DNA from: an uncultured Caldisericota bacterium
Lineage (GTDB): Bacteria > Caldisericota > Caldisericia > UBA6126
NCBI GenBank assembly: GCA_964583965.1
Contig: CAZOYI010000091.1
Span: forward strand, 1-59,101
Direction of reading: 5' to 3'
Length of the DNA: 59,101 bases
Shown here: in pieces, positions 5,785-44,747 of the stretch
How the letters are laid out: each line of letters begins with the position of its first letter
How positions within the stretch are numbered: the first letter of the stretch is position 1
Notes under the pieces: model-generated
Databases searched by the model: none
What the model saw: the letters and a program-made list of their open reading frames with translations, nothing else
Told to the model about the DNA's origin: nothing
Program-made: the position numbers and the translations under genes

Positions 5785-6579
5785 ATGCGAAATCAAATAA
5801 AGTTGCACACCTATGTTATGCAGTGCAATATTGGATCTAGACGGAAATGCGATGAGTTTATTCGTTATGGGTATATTTATGTAAATGGTCAAATCGTTGT
5901 TAAGCCAGAATATTTAATCAATCCTGAGACTGATATCATTTCTTTTAAAGAAAAAAAAATTCAACCTGATATAACTCTTTACTACTTTTTGTTTTACAAG
6001 CCTCTTAAAACTGTTACAACTACATCAGATCCAGAAAAAAGAAGAACTGTGATGAATTTTTTTCCTCCACATCTCCCTATCTTTCCAGTGGGTCGATTGG
6101 ATTATGATTCTGAAGGTCTTGTAATTATGACGAATGATGGAGAATTATCCCATAAAATCACTCATCCACGACATCATATTCCTAAAACTTACATCGTGAG
6201 AGTTAAAGGTGCACCTGAATTAAAAGTTATTGAACGACTTCGAAAGGGAATTTTCATGGATGGATATCGTTCAAAACCAGCTTATATAAGACTGCTGAAT
6301 AAAAATCGACAATCTGCAGTTTATGAAGTTGTGTTAGAAGAGGGTAAAAACCATCAGATTCGTAATATGTTCCTTTATATGGGACACCCGGTTATTGACT
6401 TAAAAAGAGTAGCTATTGGGACATTAAAAATTGATGCACTCAAACCTGGTCAATACAGAGTCATAACCAAAAAAGAGATTCAACAGCTCTTCCAAAAATC
6501 CCTTTCCGTAAAACAAAGGATTGAGAAAAAAAGATCTATTCGAGAACACAAAAAGGAACTGAAAACCACGAAATTCTAA
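5785..6579 (+). CDS. rluB: RsuA/RluB-family rRNA pseudouridine synthase
   Basis: N-terminal S4 domain (KLHTYVMQCNIGSRRKCDEFIRYGYIYVNGQ). Catalytic motif PVGRLDYDSEGLVIMTNDG. Also KTYIVRV and EGKNHQIRNMF, then a basic C-terminal tail. Confidence 0.88.
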   Translation: MRNQIKLHTYVMQCNIGSRRKCDEFIRYGYIYVNGQIVVKPEYLINPETDIISFKEKKIQPDITLYYFLFYKPLKTVTTTSDPEKRRTVMNFFPPHLPIFPVGRLDYDSEGLVIMTNDGELSHKITHPRHHIPKTYIVRVKGAPELKVIERLRKGIFMDGYRSKPAYIRLLNKNRQSAVYEVVLEEGKNHQIRNMFLYMGHPVIDLKRVAIGTLKIDALKPGQYRVITKKEIQQLFQKSLSVKQRIEKKRSIREHKKELKTTKF

Positions 6580-16637: not shown

Positions 16638-17754
16638 GGATATCCTCGATTCTTCTTAACATTTCTTTGGGTGGAATAAGTTCTCCTCCAATTTTTTCCA
16701 TAAGGTGAACTTTTTTATCGGGTAAGATTCTTTGCATTTCATATACATATTGACCTAGATTAAGTTCTGTGACGATGATTTTTTTTGCATTTCTTGTAGC
16801 ATTTTGAATTTTGATAGGGTCGATAGGGAAAAGAATTTTAGGTCGAATAAGACCAATTTCAGGATGATCAGAATAAAGCAGCGATTTTACTGTGCGACTT
16901 GCTACGCCATAGGATATAAACATGATTTCAGCATCAGGGTTGATAATTTCAACTTCATATAATTCTGAAGTGTGTTTTTCAATTTTGCGATGAATTCTAC
17001 GAATCAGTCTGTCGGCTACTTCGTAATCAGCACTTTGGAAACCATTTTCCATATGGATTAATCCCGTCACGCTTGTTCCAAGACCATCACCAATATTCCC
17101 TATGATTGGAACGTCATCTATAAATTTACCATAGGACAAATAAGAATCTCCAGGCTTTAGGTCGGGAAGAATGCGGTTAATAATAGTAACATTTTCGTGT
17201 GGATCAATTTCAATCTTTTCACGCATATGGACAATTGTTTCGGTAGTAAGAATAATAACTGGAGTGCGGTATTTTTCAGATAAATTAAAAGCTTGTATTG
17301 TCATCTCGTACAATTCTTGAACAGAAGATGGGCTTAACACAATTATTGGATGATCACCATGAGAACCCCACCTAGATTGCATTACGTCACCTTGAGCAAC
17401 TTTTGTTGGTAGACCCGTGGATGGTCCACCCCGCTGAACATTGACAATGACTATTGGCACTTCTACCATAGCTGCATAACCAAGTCCCTCTTGCATAAGA
17501 GAAAAGCCAGGACCAGAGGTTGCAGTCATTGATTTTTTACCAGCAAGAGAAGCACCAATGATAGCAGTAACGCTAGCAATTTCATCTTCCATTTGAATAA
17601 AAATCTTTTCTTCTCTGGCTAGAACAGTAGACAACAGCTCAGCTATTTCGGTGGAAGGAGTGATTGGATATCCAGCAAAAAAGCCTATACCCGCTTTTAA
17701 AGCTCCTCTTACGCAGGCCTCGGCACCTTGCAATATTTCTGTCTGTTTACTCAT
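16630..17754 (-). CDS. 2-oxoacid:ferredoxin oxidoreductase, alpha subunit
   Basis: GAEACVRGALKAGIGFFAGYPITPSTEI, TATSGPGFSLMQEGLGYA and VNVQRGGPSTGLPT blocks. I prefer ATG 17754 (MSKQTEIL), which overlaps the delta stop, over the track start at 17769. Confidence 0.93.
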   Translation of the reverse strand: MSKQTEILQGAEACVRGALKAGIGFFAGYPITPSTEIAELLSTVLAREEKIFIQMEDEIASVTAIIGASLAGKKSMTATSGPGFSLMQEGLGYAAMVEVPIVIVNVQRGGPSTGLPTKVAQGDVMQSRWGSHGDHPIIVLSPSSVQELYEMTIQAFNLSEKYRTPVIILTTETIVHMREKIEIDPHENVTIINRILPDLKPGDSYLSYGKFIDDVPIIGNIGDGLGTSVTGLIHMENGFQSADYEVADRLIRRIHRKIEKHTSELYEVEIINPDAEIMFISYGVASRTVKSLLYSDHPEIGLIRPKILFPIDPIKIQNATRNAKKIIVTELNLGQYVYEMQRILPDKKVHLMEKIGGELIPPKEMLRRIEDIHD

Positions 17755-17947
17755 GAAAATACACCTCAATTGCTAAATCTGGGCAATGTTCTTGGCATGC
17801 TAGACAGCCAATACATGCAGAAATATTTTCTACAAAAACATAACCAGTTGAATCCATGGCAAAAACGTTTTTCGGACAAATATTAACACAAATACTACAT
17901 CTCTTGCATCGTTTCTCATTAATCAAAACATCTTTAACTTTTTTCAA
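17747..17947 (-). CDS. 2-oxoacid:ferredoxin oxidoreductase, delta subunit (2x[4Fe-4S] ferredoxin)
   Basis: 66 aa with CKRCSICVNICP and CIGCLACQEHCP. TTG start (plus-strand CAA at 17945-17947). Confidence 0.85.
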   Translation of the reverse strand: MKKVKDVLINEKRCKRCSICVNICPKNVFAMDSTGYVFVENISACIGCLACQEHCPDLAIEVYFHE

Positions 17948-18014: not shown

Positions 18015-20981
18015 TTACAGAAATGAAAAATAGGAAGAATTTTTCTTCTTTTCTACAAAAAGATGTTGATGGAATGAATTTTTGAAATCCTCCTGGTGAG
18101 TAATAAATATCATTTTTTGGAATTGTTTTTGGATTTTTAATATTGTGTACATAACTTGATTTTTGCTGGATGCATCAAGAGTTCCTAGGTCCTGATCAAT
18201 ACATAAAAAGTCAGTTTTTAGCGATTGATTCTTGTGCAAAATATACGAAAGAGCGAGACGAAATGCTATATGTAATGAAAACTGTTCACCTTGACTTAAA
18301 AAAGGGAAGTCAACGGCATTTCCAAAATGATAAATTGCGACTCGAATTCCTTTTTCTGCATCAGATTTGGCATCAAGGTGAATCTGTATGGAAAGCGAAT
18401 CTTTAGATATATTGCGTAGAATTCGATTCACATCTCTTTCTATGAGAGGTAATATGCGATAAAGAATGTATGCTGGAAGGTTTTCTTGAGAAAATATTTG
18501 TTGGCAAAATGTAACTATTTCGGTTTGTTTTCGAAGTTCCGTTAATTCTCTTAGTGATTTGTCATATTCTTTTTGAACTTCATACATTACTTCCATGTCT
18601 CTTTCATGCCTAGCAATAGAAGAGATGATGGTTTCTTTATCATATTGATACTTATCCATGGATTCTTCAAGTTGATTTAATCGCCCTTCTGCTTCTTCTA
18701 GATCATGTTTTTGATAAGGTATATCTTTAATTTTTTCAATTTGTTCCTTAAGATCGATTTCAAGTTTTTCTAGTTTTTGTTCAACATCGTTTAACTGGTT
18801 TAATATTCGATTTTTCTCATCCAGTTTTTCATCCATTATCCTTTTTTCTGATTCAAAATACTTAAGTTGATTAATTTTATTCTTAATTGTTTCGTGTTCG
18901 GGAGCACTATAGTGGATCGCAAAAAATTTCTTTTTCACATCATTTATTTTCTTCCATTGATCTGTCGCATAATTTTTTGTTTCAATCCTACGTTTAATAT
19001 CAATGAGTTGTTTTGTAATTAGAGGTAACTTTTGATCTGCCTCTAGTGCACTTGATATTTGCAGTTGAAGGTCGCTTAAAGCACTTTCGAGTATGGATTG
19101 ACTAGAAACGGCATACATAGCTTCTACATAGTGTTTATCGATCGTTTTAAATCGGCTTTTTAAATTTGTAATCTTATATAAAGTTTTGTTCATTTCTTCT
19201 TCGATTTTGGATTCCTGTAATTTTGCTCGATAGTGATTTTCTGTTATTTTTCCTAGATTGGATTTGTAATCTTGGATACGCAAATAAAACGCTTGTAGTT
19301 CTTCTTCCTGGTCAAAATCTGATGAGAGAACGAGTATTTCACTTTTCAGTGTTTCAATTTTATTGGTAATGCGTTGGATAGTGTTTTTGTTCTTTTCAAG
19401 AGTAGTTTCTCTCATTTCAAGATCTCTACGGTAGTTCAGTAAAATATCTGCTTCTTTGTCTTTGTTGAGTGGTGTACCGCATAATGGACACCTATTTTCA
19501 GTGCTTTTAGGAAGTTCAAGAAAGTGAATTTTTTCACGTAGACGAACTGCCATTTCGTCGAATTTTTCATTTTGAGTCAGGAGATTTTGTTTTTTGTTTT
19601 GTTCAATTTCAATGTTGTTTTGGAGTAACTTTACTTTTTCTTTATTCTCGTGAATTGTCTGAAGTTTTTTCTTTGTCAGGGTTTCCTTTTGCATTACCTG
19701 TTTATATTCAGAAATTTGCTTTGCGATTGTATTGCAGGTCTCAAGAAAACTTATTTTTTCTTGTTTTAATGAACCAATTTTCTCATTTAAACTGTCAACC
19801 TGATCTTGAATATGACGTTTTTCTTGTTCTATGTTATCAATTTGGTAACGCTTTTTTTCCATCTCTTTCAATTTGGATTGTATTTCATGCATTTTGAGAT
19901 TCAGATCGGGCAAGAGGCTTTTTTTCTCAGAATACTCAATTTCCGTTTGCTCAAGTTCATTGCGCTTTGTTTTTAAATCCATCTCTTCTTGTTCAATGTT
20001 ATTTTGAATTTCCTTCATTTGGAGTTCTAATCTCTGTCTTTGTTCAAGATTTTCATTAAACACTTTGTTTCTTTGTATAAGATCAAGCAATTGCTTGTAG
20101 CCATTTTCAATTTCATGCTGTAGTTGAATTGATTGCTGGAGTTCATTGATTGTTTCAAGTAACGTGCTTCTTTCTTTGTGACGGTCGTTTTGATAGTTAC
20201 GTAATTGATGGATTTGATCCATCAGATTCGATTTGCGTTCCAAAAGATGATGGATCGTATGGATTTGATTTTTTAATTCTTGAATTGCTTCTTTGGAGTC
20301 ATTGATATGTTCTTCTAGCTTCTCTCTTTGGCTGATTTCTTCATCAATTCTTTTTTGAAAAACTTTCTTCTGAATAAGTTTATCTTTATTTTTTTGAATA
20401 AAATTTTCCAAAAGGCTCTCTCTAATTTTGTTTTGTGTAAAATCAACCTGAGTTTTTCGAAAAGATTCCTGATATGCTTCCAGTCTCAGAAAACGTGATA
20501 GTCTTTGATATCGTTCGCTTGGAGAATTTTCTAAAAACTCTTTATGGTTAGAAAAAGAAGAGCTCATCAAAGTCGTCATGAGGAGATTCTCAAGACTTAC
20601 ATTCACAAAAGAATGAACAAAGTTTTGATTTTCTTCATCTGTTGGTTTTGTTATTGTTTTCCAATAGGACTTTTTTCTTTCTTTTATCTCTATAGAAGGA
20701 CTCGGAGAGATATTTCGTTTCACCTTCCATATCGAATTTTCGTGCTGGAAAGTACATTCAGTAAATGAATCATGTTCTCCAAAGTGTACAAGAGAAGTGT
20801 CTGCATGATTTTGGGGATTTCTGGCAAAACCAAAAAGTGTAAATAACATTGCATCGAGGATGCTGCTTTTTCCTGCCCCGTTATTTCCGGTTATCATGGT
20901 ACTTCTGGCATTTGAAAGGTCGAGATGATGTGTTCCCTGATAAGATAAAAAATTATGGAGTGTGATTTCAATTGGAATCAT
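18015..20981 (-). CDS. SbcC/Rad50-like SMC-type ATPase with degenerate hydrolysis motifs
   Basis: 988 aa. Walker A ITGNNGAGKSSILDA. An approximately 700-aa Lys/Glu/Gln-rich coiled coil with a central zinc hook (NRCPLCGTPL). C-terminal head: signature LSQGE (canonical LSGGE), Walker B FLCIDQDLGTLD (canonical hhhhDEGFGTLD, so Glu is replaced by Gln; codon at 18192-18194), and H-loop IFITHQ. Confidence 0.85.
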   Translation of the reverse strand: MIPIEITLHNFLSYQGTHHLDLSNARSTMITGNNGAGKSSILDAMLFTLFGFARNPQNHADTSLVHFGEHDSFTECTFQHENSIWKVKRNISPSPSIEIKERKKSYWKTITKPTDEENQNFVHSFVNVSLENLLMTTLMSSSFSNHKEFLENSPSERYQRLSRFLRLEAYQESFRKTQVDFTQNKIRESLLENFIQKNKDKLIQKKVFQKRIDEEISQREKLEEHINDSKEAIQELKNQIHTIHHLLERKSNLMDQIHQLRNYQNDRHKERSTLLETINELQQSIQLQHEIENGYKQLLDLIQRNKVFNENLEQRQRLELQMKEIQNNIEQEEMDLKTKRNELEQTEIEYSEKKSLLPDLNLKMHEIQSKLKEMEKKRYQIDNIEQEKRHIQDQVDSLNEKIGSLKQEKISFLETCNTIAKQISEYKQVMQKETLTKKKLQTIHENKEKVKLLQNNIEIEQNKKQNLLTQNEKFDEMAVRLREKIHFLELPKSTENRCPLCGTPLNKDKEADILLNYRRDLEMRETTLEKNKNTIQRITNKIETLKSEILVLSSDFDQEEELQAFYLRIQDYKSNLGKITENHYRAKLQESKIEEEMNKTLYKITNLKSRFKTIDKHYVEAMYAVSSQSILESALSDLQLQISSALEADQKLPLITKQLIDIKRRIETKNYATDQWKKINDVKKKFFAIHYSAPEHETIKNKINQLKYFESEKRIMDEKLDEKNRILNQLNDVEQKLEKLEIDLKEQIEKIKDIPYQKHDLEEAEGRLNQLEESMDKYQYDKETIISSIARHERDMEVMYEVQKEYDKSLRELTELRKQTEIVTFCQQIFSQENLPAYILYRILPLIERDVNRILRNISKDSLSIQIHLDAKSDAEKGIRVAIYHFGNAVDFPFLSQGEQFSLHIAFRLALSYILHKNQSLKTDFLCIDQDLGTLDASSKNQVMYTILKIQKQFQKMIFITHQEDFKNSFHQHLFVEKKKNSSYFSFL

Positions 20982-22137
20982 GCAAACCTTCTTCAGAGAG
21001 ATATCTTAAGTAAGCTTTACGAATGTCAATTTGAAGTTCATTTGGAAACTTAGATTGTTTTTCATCAAAGAATGCATTCATATAGTAATCAAGAGGTAGT
21101 ATTTCTTCGTCTCCTACATAACAAAGTTTTTTACCTTGTTGCTCAATGCTATGTATATGGTAACAGTGATCTTCAAAAAGATGATAAATCTCGTAAAGCG
21201 AGAGTTTGGCGTCAGTATGGAGTAGTATTCTAGTAATGTGTTCTCGGTAATTATTGAGTAAGAATTCTTCATTTAGCTTTTCAATTGTTTCTTTTTCGGA
21301 ATTAGCATTGATACGAATTAATGCGGTTTTTCTTTGCTTTTCATTGTGTATAAAAACAGGAGGTGCAGACGTCTGTAAAGTGTCATATATCATAAAACCA
21401 CGTTCAATGGAAGAATCCGAAAATTCAAACTCTCCTAATGAACCTGGATATGACAACCAAGGGCCAGCGTTGTTTAACTGTTCAATTCTCTTATATGGTT
21501 GTCCTCCCAATGCGTAGAACTGAAAAGGAAGCTGATGAAGGTATTCTAAATCAAGAATTGGTAAATCAGGTAAGAGGAAGAAGGGCTCAAGGGATGGTAT
21601 TTGTGCTTGCATGAATAGAATTGGAAATTGTTCATTTTGAATTTTAGGAATCAGCTTAGCAATATGTTTTTTAGCTGATTCTGACAGTGATGTGGGATTT
21701 TCAGCTGTAGAGTGAAAGGTATTGTATGGGATTGCAGCAATTTGGAGGATTTCTTGTTCTTTTCGGATGGGAATGCAATCATTCTTGAGAATAATATGAA
21801 GATAATCATTAGAAAGAGACTGTAAGATTTGCAAAAAAGAATATCCTTGACAGTCTTGATCGTATTTGCCCTCTAGAACAACAACATGGATTTTCGAATG
21901 AATACAATCTCGGATTCCATCCATAATTATAGATTGAAGATAATCATTGGGAAGAGATGAAAAGAAAAAGTTTCCAGAAAACAAAATAATATCGATGAAG
22001 TTGTTTTTTGCATATTGAGTAACATATGTCCAATATCTAGCATAATCATGAATTTGTGAAAAATGATACAACGAAGATTCATTTTTGCCCATGTTCTGAA
22101 TTCCAAGAAAAAAATCTCCTGACTGTAAAATCTTCAT
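20968..22137 (-). CDS. SbcD/Mre11-like protein lacking the metallophosphoesterase metal ligands (intact ORF, predicted non-nuclease)
   Basis: 389 aa, collinear with SbcD. MKILQSGDFFLG vs MRILHTSDWHLG. IILFSGNFFF vs IIVAGDVFD. VVVLEGKYD vs VVLAGNHD. FYALGGQPY vs YIALGHIH. The start forms an ATGA overlap with the minE stop, and the 3' end overlaps the sbcC-like start by 14 nt. Confidence 0.75.
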   Translation of the reverse strand: MKILQSGDFFLGIQNMGKNESSLYHFSQIHDYARYWTYVTQYAKNNFIDIILFSGNFFFSSLPNDYLQSIIMDGIRDCIHSKIHVVVLEGKYDQDCQGYSFLQILQSLSNDYLHIILKNDCIPIRKEQEILQIAAIPYNTFHSTAENPTSLSESAKKHIAKLIPKIQNEQFPILFMQAQIPSLEPFFLLPDLPILDLEYLHQLPFQFYALGGQPYKRIEQLNNAGPWLSYPGSLGEFEFSDSSIERGFMIYDTLQTSAPPVFIHNEKQRKTALIRINANSEKETIEKLNEEFLLNNYREHITRILLHTDAKLSLYEIYHLFEDHCYHIHSIEQQGKKLCYVGDEEILPLDYYMNAFFDEKQSKFPNELQIDIRKAYLRYLSEEGLHDSN

Positions 22138-22367
22138 TGATCTTTTTCTAATTCACTTCTTTTAATAGGCATATCAGCAGTTAACTCGTAAGCAGTTTGG
22201 TAATGAGTACGAGTTATTCGAATATGAAGCTTTCTTTTATCAATGGGAAAATACTGACTTAATATAGCTGCTAATTTTTTCCGTAGGTCACGTTCACTTT
22301 TTGGAGAAAGAACTTTACGATCTTCATCCAAAATACGCTTTAAGCGATCTGTTAATTTTGAAGCCAT
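22134..22367 (-). CDS. minE: Cell-division topological specificity factor MinE
   Basis: 77 aa, directly after minD. The pattern LKRIL..DR...SP......LRKKLAAILSQYFPIDKRKLHIRITRT ... LTADMPIK matches clostridial-type MinE. Confidence 0.8.
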   Translation of the reverse strand: MASKLTDRLKRILDEDRKVLSPKSERDLRKKLAAILSQYFPIDKRKLHIRITRTHYQTAYELTADMPIKRSELEKDQ

Positions 22368-22376
22368 ACTATCTCC

Positions 22377-23174
22377 TTATGAAGCATTGTTTTTCATTTT
22401 CTCCCAAATAGATTTTGAAGCAGGGACTTTGTTGTGTATGGGTTTCTTTTTGTCGATAAGTTTTTCAGCGACGAGTTTAATATCGTTGGTAATCGTGAAA
22501 CTACTTTGATAAACAAAAGGTACGCCTGAATTATTTTGACGTAAAACACGTTCATCTTCTGAAATAACGCCTATACAGGGAACATTCAATAGGCTAATAA
22601 TATCTGGGGAAGTTATATAGTAGCTACGGCGACTTAACTCTTTACGGTATCGATTAATGAGGAGAAAAATTTCTTTCTTAATTCGATGGTTTTCAAGTAA
22701 AGCCAACACTCTATCAGCATCACGGATGGATGATATCTCGGGGTTTACGACAACAATTGCTTTTTTTGCAAAAAAGATAGATTTGTTGAAGCCTTCTTCA
22801 ATTCCTGCAGGTGAATCTATTATAATGTAATCAAACAGGGTTTCTAAATCCGTAAGTACTTGATGGAATTTAAAAAGGTTAACATCCTTCTTTAGGTCAC
22901 TTTGTGAAGCTGCAATAAGGGCTAGATAACTATGTGTCCTTTTGTCATATACCAATGCTTCTTCTAGCGAACATAAGCCTTTCGTCAGATCAACAATATT
23001 GGACTTTACTTTTCGTTCAAGTCCAATGATCATGTCTAAATTGCGTAAACCGATATCCATATCAATTACAACAACACTTCTTTTTTGAAGCGCGATACTG
23101 GTACCTATATTAGCAACCAAAGTTGACTTACCTACACCCCCTTTACCGGAGGTGAAAACAATAATTTGTGCCAT
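22377..23174 (-). CDS. minD: Septum site-determining ATPase MinD
   Basis: Deviant Walker A TSGKGGVGKSTLVAN. DMDIGLRNLD switch. IIIDSPAGIE. 265 aa, located between minC and minE. Confidence 0.93.
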   Translation of the reverse strand: MAQIIVFTSGKGGVGKSTLVANIGTSIALQKRSVVVIDMDIGLRNLDMIIGLERKVKSNIVDLTKGLCSLEEALVYDKRTHSYLALIAASQSDLKKDVNLFKFHQVLTDLETLFDYIIIDSPAGIEEGFNKSIFFAKKAIVVVNPEISSIRDADRVLALLENHRIKKEIFLLINRYRKELSRRSYYITSPDIISLLNVPCIGVISEDERVLRQNNSGVPFVYQSSFTITNDIKLVAEKLIDKKKPIHNKVPASKSIWEKMKNNAS

Positions 23175-23175
23175 A

Positions 23176-23898
23176 CTAATTCTGTGTCATTTTAATTGTA
23201 CTCACTTCTCCCTCATTATAATATATATAAACTGGTATGGAAACTTCTTTTAGTGAAGAGATTGAGTTATCTAGAGTTTTATTCGCAACGTAAACACGCA
23301 TTGCCTTCATTTCTTGGCATGCAAGAAGAGCTTGCTTACATTCTGGTTTTTTTGCAAAACCAACCTCTCCCTTGATAGAACCAAAAACATACAGTGATTT
23401 TCCTGCAAAAACTTTGGCTCCAGAATGTACATCCCCGAAAACCACAATATTTCCTGGGGATTGTACAACTACACCAGCTCTAACAGTCTTCCCGATCACA
23501 AGAAATTCATTAAAATCAAATGATTCTTCAGAAGAAGAAGGCGAAGATTCCGTTATATTCTTAAGATTTGAGGGAGATGTTGCTACGTAAACAGATGTCT
23601 GATCGATAGATTCTGATGGAGTTTCTCGATAGGTAAAAACCTGTTTGTTCATGAGGTAATGGAACATTGTGCGTACCATTCCGCCTTCATCGTCTGTTAA
23701 TTCTCTGTCAAAACCTGTTGCATATAAATCAACACTGGAACCAAAAAAATCCTGTTTCTTTTTATATATAGAAGCAGCTTTGCGGATGACTCGATCAAAT
23801 TCAAAGTCTTTTAGCATCAAGGACATAAGGATTCCTCCCGAGAATCCTTTAAAACTTACCACTGAGTCTGGTGTTCTTTTTGAGGGCAATTGTTTCAC
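23176..23898 (-). CDS. minC: Septum site-determining protein MinC
   Basis: 240 aa. C-terminal beta-helix repeats (VRAGVVVQSPGNIVVFGDVHSGAKVFAGKSLYVFGSIKGEV). A Ser-rich linker. GGAGGTG RBS. Located upstream of minD. Confidence 0.85.
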   Translation of the reverse strand: MKQLPSKRTPDSVVSFKGFSGGILMSLMLKDFEFDRVIRKAASIYKKKQDFFGSSVDLYATGFDRELTDDEGGMVRTMFHYLMNKQVFTYRETPSESIDQTSVYVATSPSNLKNITESSPSSSEESFDFNEFLVIGKTVRAGVVVQSPGNIVVFGDVHSGAKVFAGKSLYVFGSIKGEVGFAKKPECKQALLACQEMKAMRVYVANKTLDNSISSLKEVSIPVYIYYNEGEVSTIKMTQN

Positions 23899-23904
23899 CT
23901 CCGC

Positions 23905-25704
23905 TTAGTAAAGTTCATCATAGTATAGTATAAAATCTTTCAAGTAAGGTGCTAGTTCACTAGCATATTCAAATGAAGAATTTTCAAACATAAGGAAAGC
24001 GACACTTGACGGTTTTTCGTAAGGAAACATTGCACCCATCCATAAGTGTTGCTGTGTTTCTCTTTGACCTTCTACAAGAGCAGTACCTGTTTTTGCGGCA
24101 ATTTGGATAGATGGGATATAAAGTCCAGTTGCTGTCCCTGGGTAAATTGTTGTTTTGAAAAGTCCTTCCAAAACAACCTTATAGTATTCTTCAGAAATGT
24201 CAAAGGTTGTGGATTGATTTTTAGCCTGGGAGTGAAGATCTGCAAAAGTCTTTTCGGTAGATGTTTTTTTAAGGAGATGTGGAGTAATATGTGAATCATG
24301 AGTAGCGATAATGCCATATAATTTTGTCATCTGAAGTGGTGTAACAGAAAGAAAACCTTGTCCAATTCCTAGATTCATGGAATCGCCACGATACCAAGAA
24401 ACTCCTTTAAATTTTTCTTTCCACTCTGGGGTACCAAGAAAACCACTTTCTTCATAAGTTAGATCAATACCTGTTTTACGTGAAATACCACCATATTCTA
24501 CAGCAAAATCTACAAAACCATCAATATTGAATCGGTCTGCTAATTTATAAAAAAATACATCGCATGATACTTGAATGGCTTCAATAAGCTTAATGTAGCC
24601 ATGAGAAGAAGGATATACCCAGCACCGATATTTATCTTTTTGTCCTGGAATATTCAATGCCCCTTCACAAAGAATACTTTCTTGTGTAGTTACCAAGGAT
24701 TCCGTTAATCCATAAAGTGCTATGAGTGGTTTAAATGTAGAACCTGGTGGATACTGACCCATGGAAGCAATATTGAAGAAAGAACGATTTTCAATCCATT
24801 GATTCCATTTTTCCACAGGTCTTGGTCCTGAGAAAAAATTTGGATCAAAACCGGGATTAGAAACAAATGTAAGAATTTCTCCTGATGGAATATCCATGAG
24901 AAGCAAACATCCACGATGGTCTGATATGATTTCTTCTGCTTTTTTTTGCAACCGAATATCAATGGTGAGATAAACATCATCCCCCTTGATAACTTCTTTT
25001 TCTATGGTTTCTTCTTGAATAGACCCAAATACATTGATGGTTTGGTGTACTATACCCGGATAACCATGGAGAATGTCTTCATAATATCTTTCTACACCAG
25101 TTTGACCTATTCGTTCATTTGGTTTAAAACGAACTAAAGTGGGATTCTGCAGATCTTCTTTTGTAAGCATTCCAGTGTACCCCAAGACATGACATAATGA
25201 AGAATTATGTGGATAGTATCGCTTAAATCCCTCCTTCATAAAGATCCCTTTAAATTTATATTTATTTTCTTCTACACGCGTTTTTTCTTCGTAGGATAAA
25301 TTTTCTTTCAAAAGGACTTCTGAGTAAGAGTATTGATCTTTAATAGTATTCACTGTTGTTTCTTGTGGTAAACCAATATACTGTTCTAAAAGAGATGCCA
25401 TATGCTTTATATCAGGTATCTCATTTGGGGATGCATATAAATGAAAAGTAGGAACATCTTTGGCTACTACTATTCCATTTCTATCGTATATATTTCCTCT
25501 TGGGCTTTCTTGGGTAAGGGTTCTAGTATAGTTGTTAATAGCCATATTTTTAAATTCTTCCTGGTGAAAAGCCTGCATGTTGAATATACGAACAATTAGA
25601 AAGATTAAACTTACCAAGATTAGAAATGAAAACAAGATCATTTTAAAAGGGTGAATATCTTTGTGAATTAGAACTTGTAGAGTATTATGAGAACGGAATC
25701 TCAT
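23905..25704 (-). CDS. mrdA: Penicillin-binding protein 2 (elongasome class-B transpeptidase)
   Basis: N-terminal anchor and PBP dimerisation domain. Transpeptidase motifs GSTFKP (SxxK), VSCD (SxD as in PBP2) and KTGTA. It immediately follows mreD. Confidence 0.88.
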   Translation of the reverse strand: MRFRSHNTLQVLIHKDIHPFKMILFSFLILVSLIFLIVRIFNMQAFHQEEFKNMAINNYTRTLTQESPRGNIYDRNGIVVAKDVPTFHLYASPNEIPDIKHMASLLEQYIGLPQETTVNTIKDQYSYSEVLLKENLSYEEKTRVEENKYKFKGIFMKEGFKRYYPHNSSLCHVLGYTGMLTKEDLQNPTLVRFKPNERIGQTGVERYYEDILHGYPGIVHQTINVFGSIQEETIEKEVIKGDDVYLTIDIRLQKKAEEIISDHRGCLLLMDIPSGEILTFVSNPGFDPNFFSGPRPVEKWNQWIENRSFFNIASMGQYPPGSTFKPLIALYGLTESLVTTQESILCEGALNIPGQKDKYRCWVYPSSHGYIKLIEAIQVSCDVFFYKLADRFNIDGFVDFAVEYGGISRKTGIDLTYEESGFLGTPEWKEKFKGVSWYRGDSMNLGIGQGFLSVTPLQMTKLYGIIATHDSHITPHLLKKTSTEKTFADLHSQAKNQSTTFDISEEYYKVVLEGLFKTTIYPGTATGLYIPSIQIAAKTGTALVEGQRETQQHLWMGAMFPYEKPSSVAFLMFENSSFEYASELAPYLKDFILYYDELY

Positions 25705-26177
25705 GATAGAATTCTTCTTTTTTCATACTGAGTAAGGATTCTTCTTTTTAAATAGAGCAATATGGGATAAGGGATCATAAGCACAACGAGAATTTGAATG
25801 ATAAAAGAAGTCCATATCGACAAAGAGACAAACTGTGAAACCAGAAGTAAGTAAATTGGGAAAAGAAAAACAATTTCTGTTTGAAACAAGACAAGTGAAG
25901 AGATTTGAAAAACTTTCTGAAAAATATAATAAAATAGAACTATACAACTATATGCTAGAAATATTGGCAGTATTAGGTTGTGTGGGAGAAAACTAAATTT
26001 TAAAAGTAGCAAAGGAATGGACAACACAAAAAAGGTACTTTCCAAAAGAGACAATCCCCCTAGGAAAACAACAATAGAAATATCAATCCAATATTGAGAT
26101 GGAAAAAGAGAGGGGAAAAAAAATAAATCGAGAAACACTGCCCCAAGCTGGAGGATAAAAAAAATAACCCGCGTCAT
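25701..26177 (-). CDS. mreD: Rod shape-determining protein MreD
   Basis: 158-aa polytopic membrane protein. It overlaps the mreC stop and the mrdA start by 4 nt each. Canonical position. Confidence 0.72.
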   Translation of the reverse strand: MTRVIFFILQLGAVFLDLFFFPSLFPSQYWIDISIVVFLGGLSLLESTFFVLSIPLLLLKFSFLPHNLILPIFLAYSCIVLFYYIFQKVFQISSLVLFQTEIVFLFPIYLLLVSQFVSLSIWTSFIIQILVVLMIPYPILLYLKRRILTQYEKRRILS

Positions 26178-26995
26178 TGAAATATAAATACTTCAGTTAG
26201 AGTCGAAGTGTTAAATGAGGGTTGAACGATAGCTATTGAATGAATAGATGAAGATGATTCAATTTGATCAATAATACCAAGAACTAGATTGTTGGGTAGA
26301 GAGGAGTAACTACTTACAACGACAACATCACTCTTTTGAAAATCCTGCTCTTGGTAAAACTTGATGAATAATAGACCTCTTTTCTTATCATAGGATAATG
26401 TACCGTTGGCATTGTTACGAAGGTTCCGGATACTTATGGAAGATGATTCGTCATATATAGATAAGACGTCTGACTCCATGATACCGACGCGAGAAATTCT
26501 TCCAATCAATTGAAAATGAACTTTCACTGCTGATGTTGAGATAGGACTTACCACAGCTGCATTTTCGTTTACTCCCAAGTTCGTTCCCGCATTTACAGTA
26601 AAATTCATAGGGTTTGTAGCGTCTCTAATTAAGATGGAGCATGGCAAGAGATTATTGTATTGTTGCTGAATCCTGAAAAAAGATAATAAACGTTTATTCT
26701 CTTCTTCCACTTGCTTTAATACAGCAATTTCACTGCGTAATCTTTCGTTTTCATCTTGTAGGGAAATAGCTTTTTCGTTTAACAACGGGTATTGCCCTAT
26801 ATGCTTGAAGAATCTTTGAATTGAATTTGAACTGTTGGAAAGCACACCGCCTATGGGTGCAAGAACGGACCTTGATAGAGTAATAGTAACTTTGGAGAAA
26901 TTTGATGTCGAGTAAATAGACCAAAAAACAACCACAATTACAGATAGCAGAATGGTGAAGATTAAAAGGGACCAACTTTTTTTTGGAGTAGCCAT
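26174..26995 (-). CDS. mreC: Rod shape-determining protein MreC
   Basis: N-terminal anchor, coiled coil (LQDENERLRSEIAVLKQVEEENKRL), then beta-barrel domains (GRISRVGIMESDV). Starts 3 nt after mreB. Confidence 0.85.
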   Translation of the reverse strand: MATPKKSWSLLIFTILLSVIVVVFWSIYSTSNFSKVTITLSRSVLAPIGGVLSNSSNSIQRFFKHIGQYPLLNEKAISLQDENERLRSEIAVLKQVEEENKRLLSFFRIQQQYNNLLPCSILIRDATNPMNFTVNAGTNLGVNENAAVVSPISTSAVKVHFQLIGRISRVGIMESDVLSIYDESSSISIRNLRNNANGTLSYDKKRGLLFIKFYQEQDFQKSDVVVVSSYSSLPNNLVLGIIDQIESSSSIHSIAIVQPSFNTSTLTEVFIFQ

Positions 26996-26998
26996 GGT

Positions 26999-28036
26999 TT
27001 ATCGATAATACTTCACTTTTAAAAGCAAGGGTATAAGTTTTTCAAGGTTTTCAACAATTTTACCAGCACCAAGTGCAACACATAAAACAGGATTTTCAGC
27101 ATTTGAAACTAAAATACCGGTACCTTCAGAAATATATCTTGCCATACCGCGAATTAGAGAGCCTCCACCGGCTAAAAAAATACCTCGGTCAATAATATCA
27201 GCAGCTAGGTCAGGGGGTGTTACTTCTAATGTTGCTTTTAATGCTTCCATGATGCTTATCAATACATCGTTTAGTGCAATTCTAGTTTCTTCAGAGGTTA
27301 TTGTAACAGTCCTCGGAAGTCCAGTTATCAAATCTCTTCCTTTAATTTCAGCTGATGCGATATCGTTGGATGGATAGGCAGCACCAATTTCAATTTTAAT
27401 TTCTTCAGCAGTATAAATACCAACGAGAAGATTGTATTGGCGTTTTAAGTATTGAAGAATGGCTTCGTTCATTTCGTCACCGGCGATTCGAATCGAATTC
27501 TTTGCTACAATACCATTAAGAGAGACTACTGCAACTTCGCATGTACCACCACCTATATCAACGATCATATTGCCCGTAGGTTCATTTACGGGTAAATTGG
27601 CTCCAAGTGCTGCTGCCATAGGCTCTTGAACTAAACCAACATATTTTGCACCAGCTTGATATCCGGCTTCAATAACTGCTCTCATTTCAACTTCAGTGAT
27701 ACCAGACGGAATTCCAATAACAAGTCTTGGACGAATCCTTCCCAAAAGGCCTTTACAAGCTCCAACTTTTTGGATCAGGTATTCAATTAGTTTTTGAGTG
27801 ACTTCAAAATTTGCAATAACTCCATCTTTTAATGGACGAATGATCTGTATAGCTTCGGGGACTCTTCCTGCCATTCGTTTTGCTTCATTGCCAATAGCAA
27901 TGATTTGCCCATTTTCTCTTTGTACTGCCACAATTGAAGGTTCTCGTAGCATTATTCCTTTACCAGCAATATATACAAGTGTGTTTGCTGTTCCTAAATC
28001 AATTGCAATATCTTTACTAAAATGACCAAATCTCAT
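26999..28036 (-). CDS. mreB: Actin-like rod shape-determining protein MreB
   Basis: DIAIDLGTANTLVY, VIGIPSGITEVE, MIVDIGGGTCEVAVVSL and GIFLAGGGSLIRG motifs. 345 aa. Confidence 0.97.
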   Translation of the reverse strand: MRFGHFSKDIAIDLGTANTLVYIAGKGIMLREPSIVAVQRENGQIIAIGNEAKRMAGRVPEAIQIIRPLKDGVIANFEVTQKLIEYLIQKVGACKGLLGRIRPRLVIGIPSGITEVEMRAVIEAGYQAGAKYVGLVQEPMAAALGANLPVNEPTGNMIVDIGGGTCEVAVVSLNGIVAKNSIRIAGDEMNEAILQYLKRQYNLLVGIYTAEEIKIEIGAAYPSNDIASAEIKGRDLITGLPRTVTITSEETRIALNDVLISIMEALKATLEVTPPDLAADIIDRGIFLAGGGSLIRGMARYISEGTGILVSNAENPVLCVALGAGKIVENLEKLIPLLLKVKYYR

Positions 28037-28577: not shown

Positions 28578-29556
28578 ACTCGTGAGAAAGGTGATAAAAA
28601 TAAATTGATGATTGAGCTACGAATTGATTTTGTATACTTAGGTGAGGATGATGACCAACAAGAAAAAAATAGGTAGATAAAAAATCTGATTCTAAACCAC
28701 TCCAAGTAGCTACTGTTACTGAAGAGATTTCTGGTATAGCAGATCCAGTTTTAGGGTGTACGATATGAGTATATGTTATTCCATCTTGCTGGAACGACTG
28801 GTGCTTTGAAGAAGAAGTTGAAACAAATCCTCTGTGAATATAAAAACCTTTTTTTACGGCTTTATTGAATGGATTTTCAATACCAACGTATAAGGGTTTT
28901 TCTGTTGCGATGCACAAATTACCACCAAAATCTACAACGAATTGTTCTATGCCGTTTTGGAGAAAGTAATCAGCAATTTTATCCAATGTATATCCTTTCA
29001 ATAATCCTGACAAATCTATATACATACCATTTTTTGGTAAATACACTGTGTTTTCATTTGCATTCAGAATGATTTTCTGATAATTAACGTATCGCAAAGC
29101 ATTACGAATCTCCTTATTTGACGGAACGTGTGGGTGTGAATCTTCAAAACGGTACAATTCTAAAAGCGGTCCGATGGTTATATCAAAAACTCCGTCTGCT
29201 TCTTGGCATAAACGGTATGCTTGCTTGATCAAAAAAAAAGTCTCGACATCTACATGAATAGGGACATATCCAGCATTCTGTTTGATACGATACAAATCAG
29301 AACCAATGGTGTAAACATTCATTTTTCCATCAATTTCTTGAACAATCTTCATGATATTGTCGATATGGTGATCTGAGTATTCTGTAGAGGGCATCTTGAT
29401 GGATAAAAATGTGTTCATTGAAAAAAAAGTACGTTCAGTCCATGTAGAAATATCAGAAGGGTAACATGACAAAAGAAAAGACCCGATAAAACATAATATG
29501 GTGACAATACAAGTGACTCTGATATAGCGAATGGGTTGTTTGATGAGATCAATCAT
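28546..29556 (-). CDS. apbE: FAD:protein FMN transferase ApbE (lipoprotein)
   Basis: Lipobox (FLLSC). FSMNTFLSI, GVFDITIGPL, IDLSGLLKGY, VVDFGGNL and THIVHPKTG motifs. Confidence 0.9.
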   Translation of the reverse strand: MIDLIKQPIRYIRVTCIVTILCFIGSFLLSCYPSDISTWTERTFFSMNTFLSIKMPSTEYSDHHIDNIMKIVQEIDGKMNVYTIGSDLYRIKQNAGYVPIHVDVETFFLIKQAYRLCQEADGVFDITIGPLLELYRFEDSHPHVPSNKEIRNALRYVNYQKIILNANENTVYLPKNGMYIDLSGLLKGYTLDKIADYFLQNGIEQFVVDFGGNLCIATEKPLYVGIENPFNKAVKKGFYIHRGFVSTSSSKHQSFQQDGITYTHIVHPKTGSAIPEISSVTVATWSGLESDFLSTYFFLVGHHPHLSIQNQFVAQSSIYFYHLSHEYEIYAENYGS

Positions 29557-32329
29557 CCTTGGATTGTAATCGCTTTACAATGTCATGAACTGAATATACA
29601 TTAATCCCCTGCAGCATTTTCGGTAAACGATATGAGGTGATATAATATCGAATTCTTATCTTTTTACACAATGCAAATGCTTTTCCCGCTTCTTCAAAAG
29701 TATTGCAAACATCCGACATAGTAGTTGCCTTAGCAATGTCATTGGAATTCAGTTTAACTGTCTTTAACAGGGATACTACTGAAGGATTCAATTTTTTCGA
29801 TGAAATCGATGATATGAAACCCTTCGTGAAATGGTCTAGATATCCTTCAATAAACAAACGGTTTGCTGCTCCAGGATCAAATACAACTGAAGTATAAAAG
29901 AGGTTTTCAAAGTTTGAAACCATCGATTCTTTACTATGTTTTTCTAGAACGGGTTCTTGATAAATCTTTTGAATCATTTCTTTTTTTATCGTAGATATTG
30001 AAGTGTCTTCGGTTTCTTTGCAAGTTTCAGAAAGGGTATGTTTTAGGGTATCCTTGGAAGTGATAAGGTCATCAGAATGATTTATCGTAGACGTAGATGA
30101 ACCAGTTGTAGACGAGTTTTCTATATTATCATTTGGAATAATACTTTCTTGTTTTGGTTGATGAATTTCGTTAAAGATCTTCTCTTCGTCAAGATGTAAG
30201 GAAGGAATTTCTGTTTGAAAATCAATATTTTCCATAATAGGCTCAGATATTCGCAAGCCTTTACGATATTTCTGAGAAGTAGAATTTGTAGCAGAGGAGG
30301 GAGAATCTTCTTTTTGATCTTTACTTTCAGTTGGATCTTGGTTTAACCACTTCGGTTTGTGTGCAGGATCTAGACGAATTTTCTTTTTGGTTTCTATATT
30401 GGATTCTTCTGAAGAATCTATTTCATTTGATGTTGAGGTAGCAGATTCTGTTTCTTCTGCAGAACTTTCATCAGAATTCATGGTAGCAGTAGTCCCAGGA
30501 GTAGCAATAGAATCATTTGAACGAAGATGTTTTCTTACACTTTGTATTGATGAAAAATCCTCTTCATCTTCTGTTGGCGAACAATCCTTAAAAACTCGTG
30601 AGAGTGAATTATTCGAGGGTATTTTGGTTAGTTGCGATCCAACAATCGTGTCAACCTTGGGATGTTTTTTTAAAATCAACAATAAACCAAGAATAAGGAA
30701 AAGTAAGATTAATCCACCAAAGAAAATGGTAAAAATGAGAAGAGTAGGATTAAGGATTTGATGAGAAAATGCTTTCCATCTATATACTGAGAAAAACATA
30801 CTATAGTGAAACATGCCATCAGTAGGATTTGCAAAAAGGGCTCCCTCGCTTGAAGGGGATGTATGAAATGAATACGATAATTGGGAATTCTCAATGGGAG
30901 GAATATAATAAAAAAGCCCCTTATTCGTGTAATTGTGTAATTGGAGACACAAAATTGAGTTATCAGAAGTAATATTGATTTTCTCCAATGGAACAGTTGA
31001 ATAGTAGTTATAGATAGTATATTGATCCAAGGTAACATCCTGATTATTGGAAGGATCAGTGGTTGAAATTTTAGCCTTAGTGTGGGGATGTTGACTGTAT
31101 AGTTCAATTAAGCCTTTTTGGTCTTTCGAAAACTCTTTGGAAATTCGAGAAGATAGTATTGTAAAATCGTTGTCTAAATAGGTACCGTGGCGTCCTGGAG
31201 AAAACTCACCGCCAAAATTTTTACCTGTAGAGAAAGTAAGCACGTAGAATGGTACGTTTGAAGAGGCTGTAAAATATATGTATTCTGGCAGTGAAGGTGT
31301 ATAGCTTTGAATGAGAGATACAACTTTAGATTCTCCAGCTTTACGTAAGGTCACAGTGTCTTTTTTTTCTTTGTATTGAATGCGAATATCGGCATTGTCA
31401 AAAGGAGAATAGAAAAGAAGATCACCAAAACAAAATCCATTCACAGTAGAGTAATTCCCAAATACATAAGAGAAATTTTCATTGTCCAGATATCCAAACT
31501 GCGCTGTGATTGGACTACTTGCAGAAATAGAATAAGCCCCAGGTTGTAGATCATGAATAAAAACACCTTGTTCAGGTTGAACCGTTATATTTTTAACCTG
31601 AAGCTGGTTCTCATCAAGAATTTTTACAATGGTATCTTTTTGATAGGATGATAGCCACAAATGGCCGGGGTGATAGAAAAATAGATGATCCCCAAATAAG
31701 GTTGTTGTATCACTATCTTCAGCTTCCTTGTTTGAGAGTGGATCTGATGCTAAGGAGCTTGCATATATATATACAGGTTTTTGGGATTGAACAAGAATAT
31801 TTGTAGGATTCATCGATGAATATGTATACATTTTGCCTTTTTGTAAAACAAATGATTCAAGTAGCTTTTTGCTGTCAGTGAATATTTCAATCTTGTTTTC
31901 GTCTTCGCAAGAAATGATATGAGCATTTTCGTAATTTACGAAATGATACAATGTGCCTGCTTCCGTAGATATAGGAAGAATTGATGATATTGAGTCTTTT
32001 CGTTCTAGAATTTGAAAAATTTTAATTTCTTCACTTTTTAAAGGAGCATTTAGGAGTAAAAGGTTTTCCTGGGGTGATATACTTGTTGTACAGTGAATAG
32101 ATAAAGTGCCAGATTTAGCCCCTTCTTCAATAAACTGGTAACTTCCATTTGGAGGATTTTGAAGGGGTATCCGAATTTGAGCTCTAGAATAAGATGTTGC
32201 ACTATTGTTTTTGATGGTCAAGTATTGGGGTTTTGCTCCATATACAAAAACAATTGGTAATACCAAAAAAATCGCGAATATGGAAAGTAAAACATTTCGT
32301 ATCATCGAAAGAAATTTTTTATTATTCAT
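29549..32329 (-). CDS. Hypothetical 926-aa bitopic membrane protein (beta-rich ectodomain, TM helix, acidic low-complexity linker, C-terminal globular domain)
   Basis: Signal/anchor LLSIFAIFLVLPIVFVYG. An approximately 500-aa Ser/Tyr/Asn-rich ectodomain with recurring '..S.KPVYIY / SSPITAQF / SSNVPFYV' strands. TM helix LLIFTIFFGGLILLFLILGLLLIL. About 250 aa of S/T/E/D/N-rich sequence. The last 125 aa or so are globular (VVFDPGAANRLFIEGYLD...). I recognise no family. It overlaps rnfB and apbE by 8 nt each. Confidence 0.6.
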   Translation of the reverse strand: MNNKKFLSMIRNVLLSIFAIFLVLPIVFVYGAKPQYLTIKNNSATSYSRAQIRIPLQNPPNGSYQFIEEGAKSGTLSIHCTTSISPQENLLLLNAPLKSEEIKIFQILERKDSISSILPISTEAGTLYHFVNYENAHIISCEDENKIEIFTDSKKLLESFVLQKGKMYTYSSMNPTNILVQSQKPVYIYASSLASDPLSNKEAEDSDTTTLFGDHLFFYHPGHLWLSSYQKDTIVKILDENQLQVKNITVQPEQGVFIHDLQPGAYSISASSPITAQFGYLDNENFSYVFGNYSTVNGFCFGDLLFYSPFDNADIRIQYKEKKDTVTLRKAGESKVVSLIQSYTPSLPEYIYFTASSNVPFYVLTFSTGKNFGGEFSPGRHGTYLDNDFTILSSRISKEFSKDQKGLIELYSQHPHTKAKISTTDPSNNQDVTLDQYTIYNYYSTVPLEKINITSDNSILCLQLHNYTNKGLFYYIPPIENSQLSYSFHTSPSSEGALFANPTDGMFHYSMFFSVYRWKAFSHQILNPTLLIFTIFFGGLILLFLILGLLLILKKHPKVDTIVGSQLTKIPSNNSLSRVFKDCSPTEDEEDFSSIQSVRKHLRSNDSIATPGTTATMNSDESSAEETESATSTSNEIDSSEESNIETKKKIRLDPAHKPKWLNQDPTESKDQKEDSPSSATNSTSQKYRKGLRISEPIMENIDFQTEIPSLHLDEEKIFNEIHQPKQESIIPNDNIENSSTTGSSTSTINHSDDLITSKDTLKHTLSETCKETEDTSISTIKKEMIQKIYQEPVLEKHSKESMVSNFENLFYTSVVFDPGAANRLFIEGYLDHFTKGFISSISSKKLNPSVVSLLKTVKLNSNDIAKATTMSDVCNTFEEAGKAFALCKKIRIRYYITSYRLPKMLQGINVYSVHDIVKRLQSKDD

Positions 32330-44717: not shown

Positions 44718-44747
44718 TAAAGAAATTTGTAACTTTTGGAGGTATAT

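Follow-up and report, generated by a model that had tools for sequence, protein, structure and literature searches.

The stretch of DNA analyzed here, called the window throughout, comprises 59,101 nucleotides (nt) of contig CAZOYI010000091.1 from an uncultured Caldisericota bacterium (UBA6126). On its minus strand, between positions 18015 and 28036, lie nine consecutive genes, mreBCD-mrdA-minCDE and two genes encoding an SbcD/Mre11-like and an SbcC/Rad50-like protein, and it is this last pair that we describe. Both proteins have lost catalytic residues and kept the architecture of their families, both are under purifying selection, and the two genes occupy the slot in which other members of the class Caldisericia carry an intact sbcDC operon. 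The pair falls short of a catalytic SbcC/SbcD yet is orthologous to it by descent and architecture; it is a pseudo-enzyme derivative of SbcCD and not a new kind of system.

An initial annotation of the window had already described the pair as Mre11/Rad50-type proteins with lost catalytic residues and a retained architecture, and alignments, profile searches, and AlphaFold2 (AF2) models agree with that description. All organisms compared are uncultured and represented by metagenome-assembled genomes, and the evidence throughout is comparative.

Catalytic losses under purifying selection

The SbcD-like protein has no Pfam match, Metallophos included, and scores 37.8 bits against the TIGR00619 sbcd model, for which the cut-off is 77.65. 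A family profile of the protein matched Thermotoga maritima Mre11 over amino acids (aa) 1 to 262 (E = 1.3e-7), and a hidden Markov model (HMM) built from intact SbcD proteins found it at E = 3.7e-41. With its AF2 model (predicted local distance difference test [pLDDT] score, 63) as the query, each of the top 46 Foldseek matches in the PDB was an Mre11/SbcD structure, with E values down to 7e-13. The protein is clearly a genuine Mre11/SbcD homologue with a calcineurin-like phosphoesterase fold and a capping domain. In alignments, motifs I, II, III, and V are altered (Table 1) and the His of motif IV is absent. All five His ligands are gone, as are the Asp of motif II and the Asn of motif III; F, Y, K, Q, N, G, or P stands in their places, and D8 and D93 remain. 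These losses are common to all loci that carry the degenerate pair, termed the dead clade herein, whereas all five motifs are kept in the intact orthologues of other Caldisericia (the intact clade) and in other homologues. The former motif I to III regions contain residues that are invariant in the dead clade, namely, F10, N56, F58, F59, S60, S61, Y92, D93, and Q94, and a strand-helix-strand segment in the region of the capping domain (aa 272 to 301) has a mean pairwise identity of 0.61 in the dead clade versus 0.22 in the intact clade.

The SbcC-like protein likewise stays below the curated thresholds: it reached 62.1 bits against TIGR00618 sbcc (cut-off, 478.5) and 107 bits against the best Rad50 model (cut-off, 1000), every Rad50 or SbcC match in NCBIfam was below its cut-off, and the Pfam domain SbcC_Walker_B (PF13558) was not matched, unlike in the intact orthologues. 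Its AF2 model (pLDDT, 80.5) has the order head, coiled coil, hook, coiled coil, head, and the top Foldseek match was Rad50. Helices at aa 168 to 489 and 507 to 859 flank a hook loop at aa 490 to 506, so that the coiled coil extends over about 690 aa (approximately aa 168 to 859). In a motif comparison, the four intact loci invariantly contained DLH, GD, GNHD, H, GHIH, MQG, SGGE, and IDE, and the five dead-clade loci all kept GxNGAGKS, the Walker-B Asp, the LD of the D-loop, T/SH at the H-loop, and the CPxC hook. The signature motif, SGGE in the intact clade, reads SQGE in the window and SSGE or STAE in its relatives, with the Ser kept.

The Walker-B position has a more varied history. The initial annotation had proposed that the ATPase is locked in its ATP-bound state by a Walker-B Glu-to-Gln replacement; this Gln is present in the window but otherwise only in its close relatives, and across the five dead-clade lineages the catalytic position reads Q, Q, N, E, and D, so that the proposal does not extend to the clade. 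A site limited to these four residues would fit a demand for a polar residue at the nucleotide site in proteins in which catalysis is no longer selected. In one lineage (L011/P0013), the SbcC-like protein contains the Walker B sequence FLFIDED and has thus kept the Glu despite a lost Q-loop, an altered signature motif, and a dead SbcD partner. Taking this Glu-keeping lineage into account, the alignments suggest that decay of the ATPase followed loss of the nuclease in steps. The losses in the nuclease, Q-loop, and signature motifs are universal in the clade and the Walker-B position is variable, which argues that the former came first, on the stem of the clade, and that the Walker-B Glu disappeared afterwards, on more than one occasion.

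The dead clade is divergent, with identities down to 34 to 37% for the SbcD-like and 43 to 48% for the SbcC-like protein, and both ORFs are full length wherever a dead-clade locus covers them completely. Between the window and locus L005, the ratio of nonsynonymous to synonymous substitutions (dN/dS) was 0.097 (SbcD-like gene) and 0.057 (SbcC-like gene), and both values fall inside the span of the neighboring genes, from 0.013 (MreB) to 0.155 (ApbE); dS is near saturation, and these values are approximate. The possibility of a strain-specific decaying copy, which the initial annotation had raised against its own proposal, is not borne out: the loss is common to a clade whose members share 34 to 48% identity, at a dN/dS of about 0.06 to 0.10. 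Judging from these alignments, the loss is ancient and selected, and the pair is not a decaying copy.

Selection has also been redistributed along the proteins. The two ATPase head segments have mean pairwise identities of 0.37 and 0.41 in the dead clade versus 0.66 and 0.72 in the intact clade, although the organisms of the dead clade are more closely related to one another. For the coiled coils and hook, in contrast, the values are 0.51 to 0.65 in the dead clade versus 0.45 to 0.55 in the intact clade, in which the coiled coils are lowest (0.45 to 0.47). The two arms measure 322 and 353 aa in nine of nine Caldisericia loci, without a net insertion or deletion over 675 residues. The ATPase heads have lost constraint, which now lies on the coiled coil, the hook, and the new SbcD patch at aa 272 to 301.

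Two blocks of the coiled coil, aa 283 to 322 (approximately positions 20016 to 20135) and aa 643 to 722 (approximately positions 18816 to 19055), face each other across the antiparallel arm and are conserved in the dead and intact clades alike. Both have low pLDDT in the AF2 model, which places helix breaks in the descending block; in the model they look like a conserved mid-arm joint or a docking site specific to Caldisericia SbcC.

The sbcDC slot of Caldisericia and the surrounding gene array

To delimit the family, an exhaustive HMMER search with the SbcD-like profile was run over 1.84 billion representatives. Only three clusters were found at E < 1e-30, and the next score, 107 bits after 325, already belongs to the canonical SbcD proteins. 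Among GTDB species genomes, the family is present in six records, five titled Caldisericota or Caldisericia and one titled Calditrichota. Their contigs carry the prefixes DAIMET01, CAZBOU01, CAYRWA01, JAXGOZ01, JAGLCW01, and CAYRBR01 (GCA_964422555.1). The proteins of this last record (L005, DAIMET010000003.1, "Calditrichota bacterium") are 80 to 98% identical to those of the window and of the Caldisericia genome L008, and the title Calditrichota is probably an error.

Among canonical proteins, P0114 is the nearest relative of the SbcD-like protein. It is encoded in the same slot, in the order mrdA-minC-minD-minE-sbcD-sbcC-korDABG, and its SbcC partner has an intact Q-loop, SGGE, IDE, and CPVC. 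Relatives of P0114 are 44 to 76% identical to it, two of them are named "Caldisericia bacterium" by NCBI, and four further loci were inspected. Altogether, intact sbcDC directly follows minE in five of five other Caldisericia loci (L012, L018, L019, L020, and L023; proteins P0114 and P0261 to P0283), with Metallophos and SbcC_Walker_B matches and with minE/sbcD junctions that abut or overlap. The identity between the dead and intact clades is 19 to 26% for SbcD and 25 to 30% for SbcC. Dead-clade loci that cover the whole region and the five intact-clade loci have an identical order, apbE, heptaprenyl-synthase-I-like gene (Hpre-like), mreBCD, mrdA, minCDE, sbcD, sbcC, kor; conservation runs from orf926 to kor across the dead clade and, wherever an intact-clade locus is long enough to show it, from apbE to kor. 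Based on the five intact loci and the dead clade, the class Caldisericia as a whole is characterized by an sbcDC operon that closes the mre-min cluster. The next outgroup, P0284 (35% identical; loci L021/L022), is part of a bacterial nurA-herA-mre11 module adjoining recA-recX and is not in the min slot. HMMs from intact homologues revealed no second sbcC or sbcD in the window, and only this pair was found there.

Two further groups with matches near the SbcD-like profile were set aside, as their contexts are unrelated to the question: P0115, found on short contigs, and P0116 (L016/L017), whose neighbors, gp32, a family A DNA polymerase, RecA, and a 5'-3' exonuclease, make up a replication module like those of phages.

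The initial annotation had suggested that the pair was recruited to the Min/Mre machinery and had proposed tabulating min synteny against degenerate motifs across relatives. The adjacency to min turned out not to be specific to the degenerate form, and since an intact sbcDC follows minE in the same slot, the adjacency predates the inactivation. The nine minus-strand genes were reproduced with all coordinates and every junction: besides those in Table 1, the junctions are -4 (mreD/mrdA), +6 (mrdA/minC), +1 (minC/minD), and +9 nt (minD/minE). They do not form a unit of their own, however. The tight array comprises about 31 codirectional genes over 29 kb, from position 44491 to 15271 on the minus strand, in the order ytxH-like gene, two unknowns, trxB-like gene, valS, folC-like gene, zinc-ribbon gene, rnfCDGEAB, orf926, apbE, Hpre-like gene, mreBCD, mrdA, minCDE, the pair, and korDABG. 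All of its junctions are 28 nt or less or overlap, bar a single gap of 67 nt, the widest of the whole array, between the stop codon of the SbcC-like gene and the korD-like gene. The close packing from which the initial annotation read cotranscription and translational coupling does not discriminate here, because the same joins run across the trxB-like, valS, folC-like, rnf, apbE, mre, min, and kor genes; tight packing characterizes this genome, unrelated modules included, and is weak evidence for a functional link. Together with the intact orthologues in the same slot, this 29-kb run of unrelated genes argues that the pair was inactivated in place and not recruited.

The minE/SbcD-like junction, a 4-nt overlap, is kept in all dead-clade loci that cover it, and cotranscription of the pair with minE may be expected. 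Scans for promoter and terminator consensus sequences between 15 and 34 kb returned counts at the level of shuffled sequences, with nothing notable at the minE/pair junction or past the pair, and at this level they are uninformative on transcription units. No terminator-like hairpin was found after the pair (z = -0.06 for the folding of the 101 nt past the SbcC-like stop codon).

Table 1. Genes of the nine-gene stretch, gene junctions, and motif positions of the SbcD-like and SbcC-like proteins
Feature	Position	Strand	Description
mreB	26999..28036	-	345 aa; Pfam MreB_Mbl, 437.9 bits; 92-98% identity across the dead clade
mreC	26174..26995	-	273 aa; Pfam MreC, 72.7 bits; mreB/mreC gap +3
mreD-sized ORF	25701..26177	-	158 aa; mreC/mreD overlap -4; named from size and position only
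mrdA/PBP2	23905..25704	-	599 aa; Pfam PBP_dimer and Transpeptidase; TIGR03423 pbp2_mrdA, 490 bits (cut-off 455)
minC	23176..23898	-	240 aa; Pfam MinC_C, 56.8 bits (cut-off 33.2); TIGR01222, 52.4 bits, below cut-off
minD	22377..23174	-	265 aa; TIGR01968 minD_bact, 269 bits (cut-off 212.9); Walker A and C-terminal amphipathic helix present
minE	22134..22367	-	77 aa; Pfam MinE, 39.4 bits (cut-off 25); TIGR minE score below cut-off
minE stop/SbcD-like start, ATGA overlap	22134..22137	-	-4; read from the sequence
SbcD/Mre11-like pseudo-nuclease	20968..22137	-	389 aa; orthologous by position to the intact SbcD of other Caldisericia
Former motif I, D8-F9-F10	22108..22116	-	Canonical D-x-H; alignment
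Former motif II, G55-N56	21970..21975	-	Canonical G-D, followed by invariant FFSS; alignment
Former motif III, G90-K91-Y92-D93	21859..21870	-	Canonical G-N-H-D; alignment
Former motif V, G211-G212-Q213-P214	21496..21507	-	Canonical G-H-x-H (GHIH in the intact clade); alignment
SbcD-like aa 272-301 (LIRINANSEKETIEKLNEEFLLNNYREHITRI)	21235..21324	-	Newly constrained; strand-helix-strand, capping-domain region; structure from the AF2 model
SbcD-like/SbcC-like overlap	20968..20981	-	14 nt; GAAGG 5 nt upstream of the SbcC-like ATG
SbcC/Rad50-like protein, degenerate ATPase	18015..20981	-	988 aa; Pfam AAA_23, AAA_29, SMC_N; Rad50_zn_hook below threshold (19.7 vs 24.3 bits)
Walker A, GNNGAGKS, aa 32-39	20865..20888	-	Kept; GxNGAGKS invariant in the dead clade
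Q-loop position, S140-S142	20556..20564	-	Gln replaced by Ser/Thr in all five dead-clade lineages
Zinc hook, C498-P-L-C501	19479..19490	-	Kept; inside the AF2 hook loop
Degenerate signature, L895-S-Q-G-E899	18285..18299	-	Canonical LSGGE; alignment
Walker B, F925-L-C-I-D929-Q930	18192..18209	-	Canonical hhhhDE; alignment
H-loop His962	18096..18098	-	Kept; ITH/ISH in the clade
korD-like 2x[4Fe-4S] ferredoxin	17747..17947	-	66 aa; ORF and Cys motifs; first gene beyond the pair; context, not part of the system

Among the neighboring genes, the mreD-sized ORF has no Pfam or family match, and an ORF of 157 to 159 aa without a Pfam match stands at the place of mreD in every related locus that covers the position. 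A Fer4 gene is also found at the korD-like position in loci L012, L018, L019, and L023. The gene termed orf926 (926 aa; positions 29549 to 32329, minus strand) lies between rnfB and apbE and overlaps each by 8 nt. It has no match in Pfam, NCBIfam, or PADLOC, is conserved at 42 to 77% identity in all dead-clade loci that reach the position, and has a large ORF as its counterpart in three intact-clade loci; its position suggests a link to Rnf/ApbE. Outside the array, the window encodes two predicted surface proteins of very large size: an SLH-domain protein of 1225 aa with a 5'-nucleotidase C-terminal domain (44736 to 48413, plus strand) and a subtilase of 1094 aa with PA and FlgD-Ig domains (6576 to 9860, minus strand).

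Proposed function of the pair and alternatives

On grounds of economy, we favor the reading that the pair is a non-cutting, ATP-binding structural derivative of SbcCD that probably acts as a DNA tether or clamp, with a link to Min that is possible but unproven. In Caldisericia, the mreBCD-mrdA-minCDE cluster ends with an sbcDC operon, and the pair is its orthologue in place. On the stem of the dead clade, the Mre11-type partner would have lost all of its metal-binding His/Asn ligands and the Rad50-type partner its Q-loop Gln and canonical signature motif, with the Walker-B Glu lost later and separately in several lineages. The retained P-loop, Walker-B Asp, D-loop, and H-loop fit continued nucleotide binding and head engagement, and beyond them the proteins have preserved the fixed-length arms, the CPxC hook, and the Mre11 fold, with the old active site remodeled as an invariant aromatic cluster. 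An SbcD-like2/SbcC-like2 complex might then bind ATP with slow or no turnover and, remaining in a closed state that binds DNA, serve as a non-cutting clamp or a hook-mediated tether. Through the ATGA overlap, the pair might be translated in step with MinE. Such behavior has precedents in studied proteins: Rad50/ABC ATPase E-to-Q and Q-loop mutants bind ATP and hydrolyze it poorly, the ATP-bound closed form of Mre11-Rad50 binds and tethers DNA while occluding the nuclease, and the hook and coiled coil of Mre11-Rad50 have functions that are independent of the nuclease.

Several observations weigh against this reading. Loss of the signature Gly and of the Q-loop could weaken ATP-dependent dimerization of the heads, which makes the closed clamp state uncertain. 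Relative to housekeeping proteins, the pair evolves about two times faster than the intact pair (Wdead/Wintact of 1.26 to 1.44 versus 0.29 to 0.86), and this roughly 2-fold relative rate means that overall constraint is reduced. Conservation is lowest where contact between SbcD and SbcC would be expected, at the C terminus of SbcD and at the base of the coiled coil. Finally, net charge and isoelectric point of the heads and domains showed no pattern between the dead and intact clades and are uninformative on DNA binding.

A more specific proposal gives the pair a role in division. The non-enzymatic complex would work physically with MinCDE as a tether or sensor of unsegregated, unreplicated, or terminus DNA, so that the state of the chromosome would be read at the division site and would guide its selection in a manner like nucleoid occlusion or a checkpoint, with MinCDE having coevolved at the time of inactivation. 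We regard this as unlikely. For 14 proteins of the cluster, the internal branch between the dead and intact clades was normalized by the divergence within clades, using nine loci and one clade split. Normalized branches were 1.17 for MinC, 1.10 for MinD, and 1.43 for MinE, with 1.32 obtained for both SbcD and SbcC, whereas those of nine controls (MreB, MreC, MrdA, ApbE, the Hpre-like protein, orf926, KorA, KorB, and KorG) were between 0.34 and 0.74. All three Min proteins rank above all nine controls, which has an exact one-sided probability of 1/220. Within the clades, Min rates are normal, which confines the excess to the stem.

The Min proteins themselves have also changed. Scores against generic TIGRFAM profiles are lower for the dead clade, with dead/intact ratios of 0.63 for MinC, 0.85 for MinD, and 0.79 for MinE, compared with 0.99 for KorA, 1.0 for KorB, and 0.92 for MrdA. 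The window MinD scores below an intact-clade MinD against seven of seven MinD sequences in the PDB, which places the change on the side of the dead clade. Dead-clade MinC is about 25 aa longer, owing to a Ser/Pro-rich linker inserted between its two domains, and its N-terminal domain has no Pfam MinC_N match, while the intact-clade MinC of L020 and L023 does. Along with the conserved ATGA overlap at minE, these data give a modest hint that MinC, MinD, and MinE may have coevolved with the pair. The link to Min drawn in the initial annotation has some support, in that the Min proteins share the long branch that the nine controls lack, but the adjacency on which that link was built is found with the intact enzyme as well.

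With the same adjacency and overlap also seen next to a fully intact enzyme, linkage and change of function do not go together, and unrelated modules are joined just as tightly elsewhere in the 29-kb array. The five genes concerned are contiguous, and if the whole block had been replaced once by that of a divergent relative, the branches would look the same; the sample is nine loci and a single split. A block transfer from a lineage near known MinD was considered and rejected, as the window MinD is uniformly more distant than an intact-clade MinD from seven of seven PDB MinD sequences, which favors acceleration. Transfer from a fast-evolving donor of another kind is possible.

Less likely still is a DNA-independent role in which the pair would be a protein scaffold, a cytoskeleton-like or envelope-associated coiled coil analogous to arcadin-4 beside crenactin. 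It would explain why the heads are under less constraint than the coiled coil, hook, and mid-arm blocks (aa 283 to 322 and 643 to 722), as well as the invariant arm lengths and a neighborhood of MreB, MreC, MreD, and PBP2; the N terminus also weakly matches NF053563, the model for arcadin-4 (42 bits). That match, however, covers only the P-loop region (aa 5 to 51) and is far below the cut-off of 860 bits, the mid-arm blocks and arm lengths are shared with the intact, presumably DNA-processing orthologues and are no new feature, and Walker A and the H-loop have been retained.

That the pair is a relic drifting toward loss after the nuclease became dispensable is very improbable and largely refuted. 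The missing catalytic motifs, the heads as the least conserved part, the roughly 2-fold relative rate, and the variable Walker-B position are what would be expected of a relic, but dN/dS is 0.06 to 0.10, the ORFs have stayed full length across divergence to 34 to 43% identity, no insertion or deletion is found in 675 coiled-coil residues, and new invariant residues stand at the old motifs, with aa 272 to 301 newly constrained.

We give next to no credence to an SbcCD-derived antiphage or antiplasmid sensor resembling Lamassu, which is a documented exaptation of SbcCD (PMC12663957). The SbcC-like protein has a weak LmuB match (PADLOC, 74.9 bits), but there is neither a gene for an LmuA-like effector nor a match to LmuC, the SbcD-like protein has no PADLOC match, the coiled coils are of full length, and the locus is a conserved housekeeping cluster and not a variable island. 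A defense system in general was likewise rejected, as PADLOC returned only weak, generic matches for the ATPase (LmuB, DndD, PbeC, and JetC) and none for its partner. Just as improbable is an active nuclease/ATPase with noncanonical residues, given that all five His ligands, along with the Asp of motif II and the Asn of motif III, have been substituted and every member lacks the Q-loop Gln, even though D8 and D93 persist and the Walker-B position is Glu in one lineage and Asp in another.

Comparison with known systems

The initial annotation knew of no described system of this kind, and our survey of the searchable literature leads to the same result, with neither a naturally dead SbcCD nor a min-linked sbcCD described there. 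A precedent for a changed role is Lamassu (LmuABC), in which an SbcC-like zinc-hook ATPase and an SbcD-derived partner have been exapted beyond repair (PMC12663957). Lamassu differs in its LmuA effector, its shortened coils, its use of only the C-terminal part of SbcD, and its location in defense islands, none of which is found at the window locus. The neighborhood of the pair recalls arcadin-4 (Rkd4, NCBIfam NF053563), which is encoded in the crenactin ("arcade") gene cluster of Crenarchaeota; both are Rad50-like coiled-coil proteins encoded beside a gene of the actin/MreB family. Arcadin-4, however, is archaeal, lacks an Mre11-like partner and a link to Min, and is related to the SbcC-like protein in the P-loop only. 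Hinge-type proteins (SMC, MukB, and Wadjet JetC) were considered and rejected, because a zinc hook is found in the hinge's place, the matches are confined to the P-loop and coiled coil, and the partner has an Mre11 fold.

With bacterial SbcCD (Escherichia coli, PDB 6S6V and 6S85; T. maritima Mre11-Rad50, 3QG5), the pair shares overlapping genes in the order sbcD then sbcC, the Mre11 fold with capping domain and C-terminal helices, and a head split by a coil of about 690 aa with a CxxC hook. It differs in keeping a single Asp among the metal ligands, in the loss of the Q-loop Gln, the SGG, and, in the window, the Walker-B Glu, in its place below every curated SbcC/SbcD/Rad50 cut-off, and in a coiled coil that is more conserved than the heads. 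The intact sbcDC of Caldisericia has the same slot (minE-sbcD-sbcC-korDABG), abutting or overlapping junctions, arm lengths, and mid-arm and hook blocks, but has every catalytic motif, unlike the dead pair. Since sbcDC stands at the tail of the mre-min cluster and MinCDE underwent a burst of change on the branch of inactivation, a link between the processing of DNA ends or the terminus and the division site becomes testable in a deep-branching phylum.

To our knowledge, Mre11-Rad50/SbcCD has universally been treated as an ATP-driven nuclease, and its structural roles have been isolated only with engineered mutants. In these, Walker-B E-to-Q changes in Rad50 and nuclease-dead changes in Mre11 (of the His-to-Asn type) separate ATP-bound DNA binding and tethering from cutting. 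The pair contains the same classes of substitution, but here they are natural, affect both subunits, are more extensive, and have long been fixed. A natural complex that is dead in both subunits and under purifying selection would show what matters without the chemistry, namely, arm length, hook, mid-arm joint, and P-loop, and the dead pair would be a clean system in which to study the structural roles of Mre11-Rad50.

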